Positions 3,206-30,892 of a stretch of DNA of 64,000 nucleotides are shown here, one piece after another. The stretch comes from Escherichia phage CJ20. A program made the position numbers and the translations under genes. The number at the start of each line of letters is the position of its first letter. Position 1 is the first letter of the stretch. The stretch lies in the sequence record MT533174.1. The stretch is one strand, 5' to 3'. The notes beneath the pieces are model-generated. The model ran no database searches, was not told the DNA's origin, and saw nothing but the letters and a program-made list of their open reading frames with translations.

Positions 3206-5016
3206 TATGCAATCCTTACCCAACGGTAAACAATCAAATATGGAGGAAGCGTATCTATTGGCTGTGCCAGCGGGTCAAGAGCTTCGTTAATAGTCGCATA
3301 ATCTTCACGATAGTTTGTATAAGCAGGACCTTGCGCATCTGGGTCAACCTGGCAACCACCAACAATAATTGGACCAGTTGCATCAGCTACCAATACTTTT
3401 TCATCGGTCTGAATTTTAGGAATATTGTTTGATTTAATATGAATCTGTACATTACCACCAGTTCCGCCCGCAGTTGCCTGAGGAGCACCAGAAGAATCAA
3501 GGTCGTTATTGTTCGTATGGAAGTTCGAGGCTGGGTCAGCAGACCAACCAATCAAAACACGTTCTTCAAGGCGCTTCCATGTTCCCATACCCATATATGT
3601 TGCAGGGTTATTCGGGTTAGTCGTGTTCTCGTAAATTGTGCCAATTGGATGGAACATATTAAAGAGAATCGAAACAGCAGATGGTTTAATTTCGCTTGGG
3701 TCAACCGGTTCCAGGTTAGGAGCAAACGGATTATCGTAATCCGTAATTCTTATATCGCCGGTGATTGAAACTTCTGGACCCTGGGAAACATAGATGTTAT
3801 TTGTTTCATCTGTAATTTCATCAAGAGTCATTGTGGTGCCGATATCGTTATTATACCAAACGATAGACAGAATATCGCCATCTTCAAATGTGCGAGCAAA
3901 CTCAAAAGATTCAATACGGTTGTCTTCATCAAAGGTTGTTATATAGTCTTCTTTTGATTTAGCCCATTGACCACCATTATCTGTACACTCTTCTGCAGTG
4001 TCACCATCAGCACCTTCGCATGTATAAGCTGGATAGTTTGCAGTTCCTGCTTCGTGTTGTAATATGCTGTTGATATAAACTTCACATGCGTTCGGGTTAA
4101 TTGGACTGCTAGGAGATACCGCTAGTTCAGTAACCATAAATGTGTGTTTAGTAGATAAATCAGCTACAACCAAAGAGCCTTCGACAGGGGTTTCAAGAGT
4201 AAATTTCGAATCACGGATTTGAACATCTCGACGGTTATAAGAACTACGATACTGAGCAATACCATCGTTGAATGTTCTGACAATAACTGTGTCACCAGCT
4301 GCACAAGGCATACGTAAACGAATATTGCGACCGTCAAGGGTTACAATTTCACCAGGCGCAGCACCAGGCGAACCGAATTCAGCATTAACCGGGTCGAAAA
4401 TATCATCTTTGCCATAAAACAGGTCGTTACCACGATGTTTAACTTCGAGGCTTGCAATGTTATAAGGACGACCATTAAACACATCCAGGAAGTCCGTTTG
4501 ACCTTCTGTTGCGATGAATTGCTGGGTCTCAACAGTTGCCACGTCGTTATTTGAAATCTTGTCAATCTGTTTGTTGTCAATGTATTCCCAACGACCTGGA
4601 GAGCAATAAACCAGTTCGATATCTGCCAGGTTACGACGGATAACAACAGGGTCAGGAGAGCCTTTCATTGTGTCACCGACAGCCGGAACAATCGTCACCG
4701 GGGAGACTTGCCATGTTGCAAACACATCACGCAAACGAATAACGTAATTATATTCGGCTGGTGTCCCTTTAGGTAGTTTAACAGTAATCATACCATTTGA
4801 AGTATTCACTGCATAGCTACGACCCATAACGGCTTCCAGAGTTGTACCGTCGGCTACTGACCATGTTTTCCATGCACCAGCAGCATGAGGATTTTCTCCA
4901 TCGCCGAGCTGGTAGTAAAGGTCATCAAAGTTATTATTAATTTTTTGGCCGCCGAGACGAAGATAATCGCCGGTACCATCATCGACCATCACGCCTATTT
5001 TTAAATTTTGTTTCAT
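3205..5016 (-). CDS. 10: baseplate wedge protein gp10
   Basis: 603 aa (T4 gp10 is about 602 aa); N-terminus MKQNLKIGVMVDDGTGDYLR matches the T4 gp10 N-terminus. Confidence 0.9.
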   Translation of the reverse strand: MKQNLKIGVMVDDGTGDYLRLGGQKINNNFDDLYYQLGDGENPHAAGAWKTWSVADGTTLEAVMGRSYAVNTSNGMITVKLPKGTPAEYNYVIRLRDVFATWQVSPVTIVPAVGDTMKGSPDPVVIRRNLADIELVYCSPGRWEYIDNKQIDKISNNDVATVETQQFIATEGQTDFLDVFNGRPYNIASLEVKHRGNDLFYGKDDIFDPVNAEFGSPGAAPGEIVTLDGRNIRLRMPCAAGDTVIVRTFNDGIAQYRSSYNRRDVQIRDSKFTLETPVEGSLVVADLSTKHTFMVTELAVSPSSPINPNACEVYINSILQHEAGTANYPAYTCEGADGDTAEECTDNGGQWAKSKEDYITTFDEDNRIESFEFARTFEDGDILSIVWYNNDIGTTMTLDEITDETNNIYVSQGPEVSITGDIRITDYDNPFAPNLEPVDPSEIKPSAVSILFNMFHPIGTIYENTTNPNNPATYMGMGTWKRLEERVLIGWSADPASNFHTNNNDLDSSGAPQATAGGTGGNVQIHIKSNNIPKIQTDEKVLVADATGPIIVGGCQVDPDAQGPAYTNYREDYATINEALDPLAQPIDTLPPYLIVYRWVRIA

Positions 5017-22661: not shown

Positions 22662-22735
22662 GGCCCTGTAGCTCAATTGGTTAGAGCATCCGGCTCATAA
22701 CTGGCAGGTTTCCGGTTCAAGTCCGGATGGGGCCA
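22662..22735 (+). tRNA. tRNA with CAT anticodon (Met or Ile2-type)
   Basis: Manual fold: D-arm GCTC/GAGC, anticodon loop CTCATAA, T-arm TCCGG-TTCAAGT-CCGGA, 7-bp acceptor stem with two G-U pairs; T4 encodes a CAU-anticodon tRNA-Ile. Confidence 0.7.
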
Positions 22736-22737
22736 CC

Positions 22738-22814
22738 CGGGGTGTAGCTTAATTGTATAGAGCAACGGTCTTCTAAACCGTAGGTTGTGGGTTAGAATCC
22801 CGCCACCCCGACCA
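22738..22814 (+). tRNA. tRNA-Arg (TCT anticodon)
   Basis: Manual fold: acceptor CGGGGTG/CACCCCG, anticodon stem ACGGT/ACCGT with loop CTTCTAA, T-arm GTGGG-TTAGAAT-CCCGC, encoded CCA; T4 also encodes tRNA-Arg(UCU). Confidence 0.8.
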
Positions 22815-25904: not shown

Positions 25905-26498
25905 ATGAATACTTTAAAGAAAATTGTTGAATTCATCCGCTCCAAACTGGGTACTGCAATGGCAAAAAACCTGTCTATTGAAGACCAATATACTCAAGCG
26001 GCTTCTACCCTGATTGACAAGATTACTGAGCTCCAGACTGCCCACGTTAAGTCTATTAATGAAGAAAAACGCATCCGCGAGTTGGCGAATGAAAAAGACC
26101 AACTGGCAGCTTCAAAAGAGCGTGAAATCCGCAAACTGATTGCTGATGGTGCGGATGTCCAGGTCCATGCTAAACTGGGTCTCCTGTATCGCCGCACCGC
26201 TAAACAACTTCGTAAGAAGGCAGATGATTATGTTGAAATGCGTAATGAAATTAAATTGAAAGTTAAAGAGCTGGATGACTCTCGTCAGGAACTAGCTGTT
26301 AAACTGGAATACATCCGCGAAACCCGTAAAGTATCTGCTCTGGGTATTGCGACCGCAGATGATGTTGTTGAAATCGCTGCATTGACTAAGATTGATATTG
26401 AAGACACTCTGATGCGTGTTGAAACCTTCAAAGGTCCACAGGTTGGTGTGGATACCACGTCCGCTGACATTGAAGAATACATCAATTCACTTAAGTAA
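25905..26498 (+). CDS. hypothetical coiled-coil protein
   Basis: 197 aa; heptad-like charged helices. Confidence 0.55.
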
Positions 26499-26502
26499 GA
26501 TA

Positions 26503-26520
26503 AAGGGGGCTTTGCCCCCT
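26503..26520 (+). other. GC-rich hairpin (AAGGGGGC-TTT-GCCCCCT)
   Basis: Perfect stem directly after the stop of the 25905 ORF; no clear U-run. Confidence 0.4.
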
Positions 26521-26540
26521 AATTGGGAGAGGAGAAAATT

Positions 26541-27095
26541 ATGAGCTTATATACTGACCTTATATCAAATGTAGACTGGTTTGGCGGTAGTGGTCTTGCT
26601 ACTGAAACTAATACAGTTCTTTATAGAATCCGCGGTGATTTGGGTTATTCCAATGATTTCTTAAGAAGAACGACAAGTCGCGGTGATACTACAAAATTGC
26701 CTTTTATTTTTGCTTTAGCTGAAGACCTTTCTTTTGCAGATGCCTTGGAAATTATTGATGTAAATCTGGGTATTCAACGAGTGGAATTCGCTGGACTACG
26801 TTATTCAGTATATGCTTTAAACGAGAGCGATGATTGTATACTTCTTAATATGGCAGATGATGATTACCATTTAGTATGTTATGTGACGCTAGAAAATGGT
26901 GATGTATTTGGAATGGTTGACCGCCGGCCAGCTTATACTGATATTAAAAATTATGATAAAGATGAGCTTACTATTTTGGCTAATGAGTACACATTAGAGA
27001 GTCGTAAACGGAAACGTAAGCTTAATCGTTTTATTGCTGAATGTCGTGAATATGCTAAAGGGGTTCATAATGCGAACGTTATATCTGCCAAGTAA
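26541..27095 (+). CDS. hypothetical protein with C-terminal FIAECR tail
   Basis: 184 aa from the ATG after GGGAGAGGAG. Confidence 0.55.
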   Translation: MSLYTDLISNVDWFGGSGLATETNTVLYRIRGDLGYSNDFLRRTTSRGDTTKLPFIFALAEDLSFADALEIIDVNLGIQRVEFAGLRYSVYALNESDDCILLNMADDDYHLVCYVTLENGDVFGMVDRRPAYTDIKNYDKDELTILANEYTLESRKRKRKLNRFIAECREYAKGVHNANVISAK

Positions 27096-27429
27096 ACCAG
27101 AAAAATTTGTATACGCAGACAAGATTGATAAAGACCTTATGCCTCCATTTGGAGCTTTGTCCATGTGCATCGTTGGGGTTATAATGATGGTGCTTTGTGG
27201 GGATATGAATATCATTAGTGTTGGAGTCGCCTGGACGCTAGTAATTGCAGCTCCTTTTATTACAGTCCTGTGTATGGTATTGATAAATGTGTGGCATCAA
27301 AATCATATGAATAAAGGTTATCGTGGGCGAGTTAAAGCGTGGGAACAAAAATGTGTTTCCCTGCAAGAAGAGCACAAAATTAAATGTGCCGAAGAATTTA
27401 TTAAGGAGGTTCGTAATGGAACGGCCTAG
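27070..27429 (+). CDS. small membrane protein (C-terminal FIKEVR)
   Basis: 119 aa from the ATG at 27070; two hydrophobic helices. Confidence 0.5.
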   Translation: MRTLYLPSKPEKFVYADKIDKDLMPPFGALSMCIVGVIMMVLCGDMNIISVGVAWTLVIAAPFITVLCMVLINVWHQNHMNKGYRGRVKAWEQKCVSLQEEHKIKCAEEFIKEVRNGTA

Positions 27430-27769
27430 TCTTGCATCACATGTTTATCAATTGGTTGAATATGATATTGGTGCCAATTTATTATTAGGGATTGTCACTG
27501 CCATGCTTGGTGGTTTGGTTGGTCTGGTAATGACCACGGTTATGGCTGCAATCGAGGGAGTCATGCCCATTGAGATGGGTTTCTTTATGATAATCGCTCC
27601 GGCTGTTGTGTCTTATTTTATCCCTGTTGTGTATGATATCTGTCACACAAATGCCGTGAATGCTCCTAGTCGGAAGAGATACGCTTCAGCAATGGCTGAG
27701 TATAATAAGTTCCTAGACAAAACAAAACGTAATGACCTTGAAACCTTTATTAAGGAATGTAAATCATGA
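27416..27769 (+). CDS. small membrane protein (C-terminal FIKECKS)
   Basis: 117 aa from the ATG after AAGGAGG; two or three hydrophobic helices. Confidence 0.55.
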   Translation: MERPSLASHVYQLVEYDIGANLLLGIVTAMLGGLVGLVMTTVMAAIEGVMPIEMGFFMIIAPAVVSYFIPVVYDICHTNAVNAPSRKRYASAMAEYNKFLDKTKRNDLETFIKECKS

Positions 27770-28056
27770 ATAAAATTGAAATTGCTATCCCCAAGTATTA
27801 TGATGAGAAATCTGCAGAAAAAGCCATCTATTCTCTTCTAAATAAGACCTCTGAAATTGAAAAACACTGTGAAGAAATCGCAGATGAATATGGTATCCAA
27901 TTCGGTACCGGTGATTATGGTTCAGGCCGCACATATTATCCTGTCGGTTATGAATGCTCCCAGTGGTTTAAAAATGAAATTGAAAACAACGGTGGTGAAG
28001 TTGAAAACGGTGTCGTTACAGTTGGTGCTTGGGTCTCCTCTTCGGCAATGTGCTAA
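27766..28056 (+). CDS. small protein, tandem paralog family B (C-terminal W-x-SS-x-x-C)
   Basis: 96 aa; ends WVSSSAMC. Confidence 0.55.
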   Translation: MNKIEIAIPKYYDEKSAEKAIYSLLNKTSEIEKHCEEIADEYGIQFGTGDYGSGRTYYPVGYECSQWFKNEIENNGGEVENGVVTVGAWVSSSAMC

Positions 28057-28065
28057 GGAAACGCT

Positions 28066-28347
28066 ATGATGAATGATTACCGTAAAAATAAAGAACTGGC
28101 TAACGCAGTAAATGACATCCATAAAGCTATTCGTCGTGCCGAGGAAATTGCAGACAAATATGAGACTCATTTTAATATATACCCTGCTCGCGGTATGGGC
28201 GGTGACTATTATTCTCCTGGCGCCTTGAAAGCTGACCTTGCCCATTGGGAAGAACATGGTCATCCTGAATGGGCTATTGTTAATACTCATGACTATACAA
28301 CTGACCTGGAAAATGGTGGTTGGGTGTCCTCCTCTTACGAATGCTAA
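28066..28347 (+). CDS. small protein, tandem paralog family B
   Basis: 93 aa; ends WVSSSYEC; EEIADKYE helix shared with the neighbour. Confidence 0.55.
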   Translation: MMNDYRKNKELANAVNDIHKAIRRAEEIADKYETHFNIYPARGMGGDYYSPGALKADLAHWEEHGHPEWAIVNTHDYTTDLENGGWVSSSYEC

Positions 28348-28356
28348 GGAAATAAA

Positions 28357-28584
28357 ATGACTGCTAAAACTGTTAAAGAAATTGAAAACCAAATCCGTGC
28401 ACTAATCTGTGAAGGTGAGCAGCTGGCCGATAAAACTGGTGAATACTTTCATGTGTATGCTGATAGTCTTCAACGATATATTCCCGCAGGTTGTCCAGAA
28501 TATGAAGAATATGACTGGATTCGCGGTGATTACGGTATCCCAGATGGTAAAGGCTTCTGGTTTAACTCCTCTATGACTTGTTAA
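28357..28584 (+). CDS. small protein, tandem paralog family B
   Basis: 75 aa; ends WFNSSMTC. Confidence 0.55.
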   Translation: MTAKTVKEIENQIRALICEGEQLADKTGEYFHVYADSLQRYIPAGCPEYEEYDWIRGDYGIPDGKGFWFNSSMTC

Positions 28585-28593
28585 GGTGATAAA

Positions 28594-28827
28594 ATGACTA
28601 CTGCTGTTGAACATGCTGAATTAGAAAAAGCTGCCCTTGAACTGGCTGCGCTGTATAAGAAAGTAAAAGATATGGCTTCTGCCCAAGATTTCGGTGTTGA
28701 GCTTGACGATTATGATGGCGAAGTCCGTCTTGAAGATTGGTTGAATAGCTCTTGTTACGGTGAAGAAGCTGGTCGTACCTTCGTTGCTCGTGCCGATGGT
28801 AAAATCTGGTACCCGAGCTCATGCTAA
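28594..28827 (+). CDS. small protein, tandem paralog family B
   Basis: 77 aa; ends WYPSSC. Confidence 0.55.
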   Translation: MTTAVEHAELEKAALELAALYKKVKDMASAQDFGVELDDYDGEVRLEDWLNSSCYGEEAGRTFVARADGKIWYPSSC

Positions 28828-29048
28828 AATTAAAGAAAAGATATATTCGTAAAATAAATGGTCTTCGTGATTATGCCAAAGGTTGGCCATTAAGTATTAT
28901 TATGGCTGATAGACATCCACGTTATAATAACGAGTTGACTTATTACAAAAAGTATGATTCGTATTGTCGGTCTAAAGCGGGTCGTTTAGATGGTTCCTAT
29001 GAAGAATATTTCGGTAAAAAACCTACTCGTATTTCGTTAGGAAAATAA
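28821..29048 (+). CDS. hypothetical basic protein
   Basis: 75-aa ORF rich in Lys/Arg/Tyr. Confidence 0.5.
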   Translation: MLKLKKRYIRKINGLRDYAKGWPLSIIMADRHPRYNNELTYYKKYDSYCRSKAGRLDGSYEEYFGKKPTRISLGK

Positions 29049-29078
29049 TTTAATCACAAGGATGTGGTAGGAGGAATT

Positions 29079-29408
29079 ATGCATAAAGATTCGGTATTCA
29101 AATATCTTTTGAAAACAGATAAAGAATTCTATATGAATGGGCAAGCCTTCTTGTTCGTTCGTGGTAAACGTGAGATGTTTTACAAATGCGACCTCTCAAT
29201 GCATCATCATATGTATCATACCCACGGTGAGCATATACTGGGGTTCTCCGGTGACGAGACTAGACATATAGCTATGTACTATGACCATTTTAAGCTTAAT
29301 GATTGTGGTGACAATGCTTTAGTCTGGAACTCATCTTGGCGCCGATGGGACGTAGTAGACAACAATAAATTATTTTTAGAATATTGTCGAAGCAGTATAC
29401 AAGTCTAA
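29079..29408 (+). CDS. hypothetical His-rich protein
   Basis: 109 aa from the ATG after GGAGGA; HHHMYHTHGEH segment suggests metal binding. Confidence 0.5.
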   Translation: MHKDSVFKYLLKTDKEFYMNGQAFLFVRGKREMFYKCDLSMHHHMYHTHGEHILGFSGDETRHIAMYYDHFKLNDCGDNALVWNSSWRRWDVVDNNKLFLEYCRSSIQV

Positions 29409-29472
29409 AAAACTGTGTTACTATACTCCTATCAACTGATGACAATCACGTTATCAGAACAGGAGAATAAAA

Positions 29473-29673
29473 ATGTCTATCGCAAACGAATTAATCAAAG
29501 TTCTGAACGAAGCCAAAGTCAACCAACTGGAGGTTAATCTCCAGGAAGTTTCTGATGGCATTAAAGTAACCATCAGTGGTGATTACGCAGGCGTCACAGA
29601 ACGTGTTTGTGATTCTCTGGAAGAAGTAGTTTCCTGCATTAAAAGAGATATTTACGCATACGGTATTATTTGA
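29473..29673 (+). CDS. hypothetical protein
   Basis: 66-aa ORF after CAGGAGAATAAAAATG. Confidence 0.5.
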   Translation: MSIANELIKVLNEAKVNQLEVNLQEVSDGIKVTISGDYAGVTERVCDSLEEVVSCIKRDIYAYGII

Positions 29674-29683
29674 GGAAAATATT

Positions 29684-29914
29684 ATGTGGTATTACGCCCC
29701 AATGGCTGATGAGCCCGTAAAAATTAGTCGTGCTAAGTTTACAAAGATTTACGGTCTCGTTTATAAGAAGTCTGATTACGGTGTTCGTTTTGAAGATGCG
29801 CACTGTATCAACGACCCTTATAATGAAGACCTCTATGGCAAATTGGTTCCTATCGTTAAGGGGTCCGCTTCTGAGATGATAGATGAATCTAATATCTCTG
29901 CTGCTGAAATTTAA
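29684..29914 (+). CDS. hypothetical protein
   Basis: 76-aa ORF. Confidence 0.5.
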   Translation: MWYYAPMADEPVKISRAKFTKIYGLVYKKSDYGVRFEDAHCINDPYNEDLYGKLVPIVKGSASEMIDESNISAAEI

Positions 29915-29932: not shown

Positions 29933-30892
29933 ATGATGTTAGTTATTGGCTCTCGCGCATTGCATAACGCCGGTCTGATTGAAAGTAAGAAAATTGAAAA
30001 CTCTGATTGGGACTTTATAGCAGACCAAGGTTCCTGGAACAACTTTAAAACCCAGATGATGGGGCAGCATGTTCCTGTGGATAACCCAGATGTGCAAGCT
30101 TTTAAGTGTATGCACAACGGTAAAGAAACCTATTTTGAAGCATACATCGTCCGAGCCCTGACAAGTGTTCGTGAGCTGACTGATGAGCTACAAGAGGAAG
30201 ATTTTACTTCCAGTTATCGTCTGCTCAAATATGCGAAGGCAAATATTCAGAAAGACCGTCTATCTGGTTTTTACTGGGCGACCCCTGATATTTGTCTGGC
30301 AATTAAATTGTCTCATCGTTACCTGAAGAACAATCCATTCTTCCTGAAGACAATGAGCCATATTAATTACCTTCGTAATAAGGGTGTTGTTCTTAATGAT
30401 GAACTACAAAAAATCATGCAACAACGACAGGCAGAAACACTGTCATATAGCCACCCTAAACTAGACGTGGGCAAGAAAACTTTCTTTAATGATACAATCT
30501 ATACCCTTGACCATGACTCCATCCACGAGGCCGTGGCGCTTGCTGATAAGCCTGCATATAAGTTCTATATGAAGGATGATTCAGAAGTTATGACCTCGCG
30601 TGAAAAATTTGAAGCACTCCCTGAGATTATTAAACTGGCAGGGGTTTATGAAGAAGCATGTGTGCTCGCTCTGGAGCGTTCGCAGGTTCCTAATGAGTTC
30701 AATATTTCTCCATCCGTGAGCTTCCATATTGCACTGGAAAAAGTCTGTACCTCCATTACTTCTGGATGGTTCCGTGAGTATGCCTGGGAACATTACCAGG
30801 AAGTGGTTAATATGTACAACACCCTGGGTCACGAAGACTATGTTAAACGTTTCAAGGCTAACCAACATTTAATTCGTCCTTTCGAAAAATAA
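29933..30892 (+). CDS. hypothetical 319-aa protein
   Basis: Long ORF; N-terminal IGSRAL...SDWDFIAD is weakly reminiscent of nucleotidyltransferase-fold motifs. Confidence 0.6.
   Translation: MMLVIGSRALHNAGLIESKKIENSDWDFIADQGSWNNFKTQMMGQHVPVDNPDVQAFKCMHNGKETYFEAYIVRALTSVRELTDELQEEDFTSSYRLLKYAKANIQKDRLSGFYWATPDICLAIKLSHRYLKNNPFFLKTMSHINYLRNKGVVLNDELQKIMQQRQAETLSYSHPKLDVGKKTFFNDTIYTLDHDSIHEAVALADKPAYKFYMKDDSEVMTSREKFEALPEIIKLAGVYEEACVLALERSQVPNEFNISPSVSFHIALEKVCTSITSGWFREYAWEHYQEVVNMYNTLGHEDYVKRFKANQHLIRPFEK

Follow-up and report, generated by a model that had tools for sequence, protein, structure and literature searches.

Escherichia phage CJ20 carries, within the 64,000-nucleotide stretch of its sequence record MT533174.1 analysed here (the window), four small adjacent genes at positions 27766-28827 whose products end in closely similar short tails. 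An initial annotation described them as a locally amplified, diversifying family of the kind seen among host-interaction genes, and suggested a catalytic, metal-binding or disulfide role for a C-terminal cysteine. This raises the question of what the four genes, hereafter paralogs A to D, belong to, and what their common tail is for. The best explanation of the evidence presented below is that A-D are real, co-translated genes and that, as the small-protein component, they make up a conserved, phage-only, two-part module together with a nucleotidyltransferase (NTase) gene located 1.1 kb downstream on the same strand (array end at 28827, NTase start at 29933). Both this linked gene and a second, internal copy of the tail motif in D had been overlooked. 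The module looks like an undescribed two-part phage system, consisting of an NTase with dedicated small protein partners.

A family of small proteins ending in cysteine

All four genes were found on the plus strand as annotated: A at 27766-28056 (96 amino acids), B at 28066-28347 (93 amino acids), C at 28357-28584 (75 amino acids) and D at 28594-28827 (77 amino acids). The N-terminal helix strings and C-terminal tails that had been quoted for them are correct, and the proteins end in GAWVSSSAMC, GGWVSSSYEC, GFWFNSSMTC and DGKIWYPSSC, respectively. A cysteine is indeed present in each tail; it had been placed within the last one to three residues, but is always the very last one. The tails of A, B and C are encoded on the plus strand by the segments 28030-28053 (WVSSSAMC), 28321-28344 and 28558-28581. 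None of the other 667 open reading frames (ORFs) of at least 30 amino acids in the window has the motif shared by A-D, W-x-x-S-S-(x-x)-C with the cysteine as the final residue.

A, B and C are alike over nearly their full length (BLASTP E-values of 1e-5 for A-B, 7e-5 for B-C and 7e-4 for A-C). The pairwise similarity of D to A-C is weak (E-values of 0.05-0.1), and its membership of the family comes from the profile of PHROG 899 (function unknown). All four proteins match this profile, with E-values of 5e-23 for A, 4.4e-20 for B, 9.5e-15 for C and 8.6e-10 for D, in alignments running through or nearly to its C-terminal end. These are therefore true paralogs, and their similarity is not confined to the last few residues.

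A word-indexed homologue search returned only close T4-like relatives, and the breadth of the family became visible only in an exhaustive profile search. Using a hidden Markov model (HMM) against 1.84 billion cluster representatives, we obtained 199 matches at E ≤ 1e-3, nearly all of them 70-120 amino acids long and with the match extending to the last residue. In the C-terminal logo of 137 diverged representatives, the terminal cysteine and the serine at position -4 are present in all 137, the serine at -3 in 135 and the tryptophan at -7 in 133; neither serine is ever exchanged for threonine, and glycine is common at -9/-8. The cysteine is thus constrained, as had been proposed from the four copies in the window. 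Since it is essentially invariant together with the two preceding serines, a chemical, metal-binding or thiol role for it is a reasonable proposal from these alignments.

Family proteins, of 60-150 amino acids, share the tail form G-x-W-x-[SAP]-S-S-x-x-C, or D-G-x-x-W-x-x-S-S-C in a D-type subfamily, and A-D conform to it. They are acidic, with a median isoelectric point (pI) of 4.4 (182 members) and a median net charge of -9; the pI of A-D is about 4.4-5.2. In 77 of 142 members the protein contains a single cysteine, and approximately 4% have one extra residue beyond the motif cysteine. A marine contig (L013, features at 4202-4384 and 4424-4864) has one family member that ends in GEWTSSSQN, without the cysteine, and a PF26820 (Phage_T4_Y00F) gene placed between the small genes and the NTase gene.

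Members of the D-type subfamily combine an internal D-W-x-[NS]-S-S-C-Y-G-E with a terminal D-G-S-x-W-x-x-S-S-C. The two motif copies of D itself, WLNSSC (within DWLNSSCYGE) and WYPSSC, are encoded on the plus strand at 28738-28755 and 28807-28824, respectively. Both are kept in an alignment of D-type proteins from 11 phages, in which W49, S52, C54, W72, S75 and C77 are invariant. The motif unit is best described, from these comparisons, as W-x-x-S-S plus a cysteine with 0, 2 or 3 residues before it, a unit which need not be terminal, since the D type keeps an internal copy.

The AlphaFold2 model of A, built from a 36-sequence alignment, has a predicted local distance difference test (pLDDT) score of 91.8. 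It consists of a long helix (residues 14-42) and a small beta-sheet, whose last strand holds the tail tryptophan; S-S-A-M forms a short terminal helical turn. The pLDDT is 89-97 for residues 11-90 and 80 for the last block, and this lower confidence is consistent with an exposed end. When the model was compared with the PDB, no structural relative was found, and a sequence search of the PDB with the family profile gave coiled-coil noise only. Matches in BFVD were uncharacterised family members only. Scans of A-D against Pfam, NCBIfam and PADLOC gave nothing significant, and the longer family members with N-terminal extensions were found to contain no known domain.

Linkage to a nucleotidyltransferase gene

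The gene downstream of the array (29933-30892, plus strand, 319 amino acids) encodes a full-length member of PHROG 2141, composed of the Pfam domains DUF7277 (PF23942) and DUF7275 (PF23940). The same order, one or more small Cys-tail genes followed by the NTase gene, is found in Mosigvirus and Karamvirus. It is kept amid entirely different neighbours in Aeromonas phage 60AhydR15PP, where the module lies beside nrdD, and likewise in the Pseudomonas Otagovirus phiPsa347, the E. coli Phapecoctavirus EP57, Stenotrophomonas phage YB07, the Salmonella jumbo phage Munch, an Acinetobacter T4-like phage and a marine metagenome contig. The two genes are also linked in Menderavirus.

Loci were collected in two ways, by alignment of the NTase to viral contigs and by a motif-first scan with a degenerate DNA pattern for the tail. 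At least one family member was present in 74 of the 80 viral-contig loci retrieved with the NTase, with a copy number of 1-6 per locus (modes 2 and 5), and nearly all copies were located upstream of the NTase gene, on the same strand and within 3 kb. Frequently the last small gene ends at, or runs into, the start of the NTase gene (0 to 16 nucleotides), which suggests that the small genes and the NTase gene are translationally coupled. In the motif-first scan, 27 of 30 hits were true members, and an NTase gene was found at every such locus with enough downstream DNA.

Clustering of the neighbouring ORFs of 89 loci, which represent 18 NTase clades at 60% identity, placed the small family in 16 of the 18 clades, with 184 member ORFs upstream of the NTase gene and 4 downstream. 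The next most widespread neighbour family reached only 5 clades, and no third conserved component of the module emerged from this clustering. One apparently partner-less locus (L044) does have a D-type member, which the HMM had missed. In these surveys the small family was never seen without the NTase, and the NTase was sometimes seen without the small family.

Several loci deserve separate mention. In one of them (L088) the family match lies 5.3 kb downstream of the NTase gene and on the opposite strand. One NTase clade (L059, L060 and L068), about 41-43% identical to the enzyme of the window, has no Cys-tail gene within 6 kb upstream. Outside the enterobacterial T4-like phages, the module repeatedly lies amid genes of nucleotide and nicotinamide adenine dinucleotide (NAD) metabolism (L005, L008, L010, L006, L013 and L009). 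These neighbours include nrdD with glutaredoxin and NAMPT; an NMNAT-like gene with NAMPT and a deoxynucleoside monophosphate phosphatase; Prs with NAPRT and an ADP-ribosyltransferase; a class Ia or class II ribonucleotide reductase with ThyX; and an RNA ligase with a kinase.

The encoded enzyme has both the signature and the alpha-beta fold of the pol-beta nucleotidyltransferase superfamily, and its fold is MenT/ANT-like. Because the G6-S7 pair, the D25-x-D27 motif and the third acidic residue, E69, are all invariant, the enzyme is probably active. The C-terminal DUF7275 domain is nevertheless the most conserved part of the protein, with H128, H174, D193-H194-D195, H198, E240-E241, E248-R249, C272 and the string TSITSGWFRE. 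A Pfam scan of the NTase (E ≤ 1) gave DUF7275 and DUF7277 as the only significant domains, with Retrotrans_gag far below threshold (E-value 0.076). In a profile search of DUF7275 against the PDB, which addressed a possible relation to HD or HEPN domains, the only match was an insignificant one to RNase L (E-value 0.36). We found no literature on PHROG 899, PHROG 2141, the two DUFs, the tail motif or the gene linkage; a comparative genomics paper on jumbo phages covers RlaP and CCA-adding NTases, and not the DUF7277/DUF7275 family. Both families are so far only unannotated catalogue entries, as PHROGs and Pfam DUFs.

The pattern of conserved cysteines in DUF7275 bears on one possible use of the tails. 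All partner-bearing phages retain H174 and C272, and both residues are replaced in the shorter, partner-less actinophage homologues (L011 and L012). The Cys tails could join the small proteins, and possibly C272 of the NTase, round a metal ion, an iron-sulfur cluster or disulfides, with A giving one cysteine and D two; the tail would then hold an assembly together instead of being modified. The single cysteine of most members, the two invariant motif copies of the D type and a minimal conserved set made of A-type, D-type and NTase would all fit such an assembly. The proposal is purely inferential, however, and the C272 correlation is based on two lineages. Another conserved cysteine, C243, is dispensable, being a tyrosine in YB07 and in the Acinetobacter phage, which both carry partners. 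Serine is a poor metal ligand, and disulfides are disfavoured in the cytoplasm. We consider an assembly of this type improbable.

The module is a phage one: among about 186,000 bacterial and archaeal species genomes the NTase gave 5 matches, all of them on contigs of metagenome-assembled genomes. In T4 itself neither gene was found in the regions scanned, 1-76 kb and 119-169 kb (~75% of the genome), the late structural block at 76-119 kb lying outside the scan. Two T4 loci were considered as counterparts and rejected. The nrdC.1-nrdC.3 region, where small genes are followed by a 308-amino-acid gene, matches neither profile and is unrelated, and nrdC.11 (L134, 5936-6946), annotated as a nucleotidyltransferase, gives no match to the DUF7277/DUF7275 profile.

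Age, copy number and layout of the array

A-D are mutually 24-31% identical, and each of the types A, B, C and D, as well as a fifth type, X, present in Shigella phage SP18, has orthologues in other genera. The A-type is the most widely conserved, with orthologues in 13 phage groups, and the pair of A-type and D-type occurs in Aeromonas, Karamvirus, Serratia and Pectobacterium phages and even in Phapecoctavirus, which is not T4-like. The paralog types are old orthologous lineages common to several phage genera, the A-type and D-type being the oldest and widest pair.

The ratio of nonsynonymous to synonymous substitution rates (dN/dS) among A-D themselves is meaningless at 24-31% identity, and comparisons of orthologues were used instead. 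Against seven relatives dN/dS was 0.00-0.24 for A, 0.10-0.43 for B, 0.04-0.33 for C and 0.03-0.25 for D, and 0.04-0.13 for the NTase. A-D are under purifying selection, somewhat relaxed, which does not support the diversification that had been suggested. Nor is a local amplification supported, since the types are old and have orthologues across genera, arrays of 2-6 copies are the norm, and the only recent copy-number event seen is a loss.

The window region is ~96% identical to SP18 and to Escherichia phage P896, T4-like phages of the genus Gaprivervirus. SP18 and several relatives have five copies, and the window has four. In the DNA alignment the window corresponds to B of SP18 upstream of 28321-28336, and to the end of X and the start of C downstream of it. 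That 16-nucleotide stretch on the plus strand, TGGGTGTCCTCCTCTT, contains the codons for W-V-S-S-S, is identical in B and X of SP18, and marks the crossover point. The window has lost unit X (65 amino acids) by recombination inside this identical stretch, so that its B consists of a B body with an X tail (SSSYEC) and its B/C junction is derived from X. As the crossover lies inside a motif-coding stretch, the conserved motif DNA is itself the substrate for copy-number change.

These observations also bear on the view that A-D are independent, diversifying host-interaction proteins, for example anti-defence proteins, whose proximity to the NTase gene is merely inherited synteny. A-D are small acidic proteins whose genes lie among other small accessory genes, most of them unannotated, and their copy number varies between close relatives, as this view would have it. 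It is hard to reconcile, however, with purifying selection, with the age of the paralog types and with a linkage that survives a complete change of genomic context and of phage lineage, and we give it little credence.

The array lies in an accessory-gene block flanked by a tRNA cluster and by e.2/nudE/e. All four genes start with ATG and stop with TAA, and the spacers between them are uniformly 9 nucleotides. The Shine-Dalgarno sequence of the next small gene (TAAGGA/TAAGGT) includes the preceding TAA stop codon. At the two ends of the block, the ATG of A shares bases with the stop codon of the membrane-protein gene before it (ATGA), and the stop of D overlaps the start of the following ORF (ATGCTAA). 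From this sharing of stop and ribosome-binding sites, the 9-nucleotide spacers and the overlaps at both ends, the A-D block looks translationally coupled. Promoter and terminator scans gave no enrichment over shuffled sequences, and no T4-type late or MotA-box promoter was found in the segment from 24 to 32 kb in the window.

In other genera the four ORFs between D and the NTase gene (75, 114, 66 and 76 amino acids; 28821-29914, plus strand; phrog_7065, 9796, 14244 and 3723) are missing or exchanged for other genes, and on this comparison they do not belong to the conserved module. Immediately upstream of A, an e.4-like gene (phrog_2604) and a second membrane-protein gene (phrog_2330) overlap each other at 27034-27769. 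Each weakly matches the family of the other (E-value 0.001), so that they form a further pair of adjacent paralogs. A GC-rich perfect hairpin, GGGGGCTTTGCCCCC, at 26504-26520 lies between the end of one ORF at 26498 and the start of the next at 26523 and may be a terminator or an RNA-processing element. In the tRNA cluster, tRNA-Met (22662-22737) directly adjoins tRNA-Arg (22738-22814); the order in SP18 is Met-Asn-Arg, so that a tRNA-Asn has apparently been deleted in the window.

Possible roles of the tail and comparison with known systems

A single NTase is accompanied by several paralog types that are old and non-redundant. The reading that we lean towards, if only slightly, regards the small proteins as clients of the NTase and the tail as their common recognition or chemistry element. 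They would then be substrates or adaptors of the enzyme rather than independent host-interaction genes. The invariant tail would be the handle by which one NTase recognises all paralogs, and the cysteine, placed by the tryptophan anchor and the Ser-Ser turn, would be the site of a shared chemistry. Transfer of a nucleotide by the NTase to the tail would be the most likely chemistry, being the most natural one for a pol-beta NTase; thiol- or metal-mediated attachment of the tail to the NTase would be an alternative. Through their differing acidic bodies, the paralogs may each have a separate target inside the infected host. In line with such a partnership, the actinophage homologues in which C272 and H174 have been lost are also without small partners.

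Several observations speak against clients of this kind. A serine that is never replaced by threonine, at a helix-cap position, suggests a structural helix N-cap rather than an acceptor hydroxyl; the Ser-Ser pair may therefore be structural, and the cysteine the reactive or ligand residue. The spacing of 0, 2 or 3 residues between the serines and the cysteine, the ~4% of members with an extra residue and the internal copy in D make a strictly terminal-carboxylate chemistry unlikely. By analogy, the match of the fold to MenT points to tRNA 3' ends, and not to proteins, as the substrate. Furthermore, the clade of L059, L060 and L068, the Karamvirus-like locus L038 and the actinophage DUF7275 homologues have no small partner within about 6 kb, so the enzyme is evidently able to work without small proteins.

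In its widest form, the client reading would describe a previously unrecognised post-translational system, in which one MenT/ANT-like NTase covalently modifies, or is guided by, a set of effectors that share the Cys-ended tail W-x-S-S-(S-x-x)-C. The tail would serve large virulent phages as a tag dedicated to enzyme recognition and modification, and the paralogs would each bring the modification, or themselves, to a separate target of the host. We put this forward tentatively, as possible but rather doubtful. Experiments might uncover either a protein modification not seen before or a novel means by which a tRNA-type nucleotidyltransferase is regulated or targeted in the course of infection. 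They have a concrete starting point in the invariant Cys-ended tail, which sits on a fold with no solved relative and is tied to one conserved NTase. The linkage also places two Pfam DUFs and two large PHROGs in a functional context. The module is carried by hundreds of sequenced large virulent phages of Escherichia, Shigella, Klebsiella, Enterobacter, Aeromonas, Acinetobacter, Pseudomonas and Stenotrophomonas, many of which are therapy candidates, and by marine contigs. That it was not found in the scanned part of T4 may explain why it has not been studied.

Chemistry on a C-terminal cysteine, or on a Ser...Cys tail, occurs in HypE, whose C-terminal cysteine is a carrier, and in the precursors of lanthipeptides and of peptides with aminovinyl-cysteine (AviCys) rings. 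The small proteins resemble these in their strictly conserved, extreme C-terminal cysteine preceded by serine, and they show no homology to them. A maturation like that of ribosomally synthesised and post-translationally modified peptides (RiPPs) can be imagined, in which the NTase activates a tail serine by nucleotidylylation, the serine is converted into dehydroalanine and the cysteine adds to it to form a lanthionine-type ring. The C-terminal S-x-x-C is similar to such ring precursors, several precursor genes per enzyme are a hallmark of RiPPs, and ring formation tolerates a variable distance between serine and cysteine. We know, however, of no precedent for this chemistry. The putative leader is a well-folded domain of 70-90 amino acids with a pLDDT above 90 and not a short, unstructured peptide, the tail serine is never threonine, and clustering of neighbours revealed no third conserved gene. 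The Pfam scan of the window neighbours showed no family of dehydratases, cyclases, proteases or exporters, and no gene of the LanB, LanC, LanM, LanKC, LanL, LanD or HypF type was found nearby. A RiPP-like role is thus highly improbable, and A-D were rejected as lanthipeptide or AviCys precursors. They were also rejected as ubiquitin-like or sulfur-carrier proteins such as ThiS and MoaD, as they do not combine a beta-grasp fold with a C-terminal Gly-Gly, and as thioredoxins or glutaredoxins, as there is no thioredoxin-fold match, over half of the members have a single cysteine, and the motif cysteine is last in all but ~4%.

Among nucleotidyltransferases of similar fold, ANT(2'') (PDB 4XJE) and LnuA (PDB 4WH5) act on small molecules, have no dedicated protein partners and show no detectable sequence similarity to the NTase of the window. 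MenT toxins extend tRNA 3' ends by nucleotide addition, and the short antitoxin MenA1 blocks MenT1 (PMC10435456). The module is like MenAT and AbiE systems, for example MenT1-MenA1 of M. tuberculosis (PDB 8AN4), in enzyme fold and in gene order. It could in consequence be a toxin-antitoxin-like pair, in which the NTase is a tRNA-modifying enzyme of the MenT/AbiEii type and the small proteins inhibit it by plugging or clamping it with their tails, as MenA1 neutralises MenT1. The NTase lies, however, outside the DUF1814/AbiEii sequence family, and Pfam DUF1814, PADLOC and NCBIfam searches gave no match. MenT has no counterpart to the large and highly conserved DUF7275 domain. The small proteins are unrelated by sequence and fold to MenA1, to the MenA3 kinase and to the winged helix-turn-helix protein AbiEi, and they resemble no PDB entry, the MenAT1 complex included. 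Two to six long-conserved, non-redundant paralogs per enzyme are more than one inhibitor needs, and partner-less NTase clades would leave a toxin unneutralised. The module is found in virulent phages only and, apart from the few metagenomic contigs mentioned above, is absent from bacterial genomes. A toxin-antitoxin-like pair appears unlikely, and as the tests of sequence family and antitoxin type both failed, the module should not be filed as MenAT or AbiE.

GlnD and GlnE act on PII and on glutamine synthetase, respectively, and MNT antitoxins poly-AMPylate their HEPN toxins. In these systems, as a precedent, a pol-beta NTase acts on a partner protein whose gene lies next to its own, and the possible combination of an NTase with a His/Asp-rich second domain in the enzyme of the window recalls the NTase-HD architecture of GlnD.

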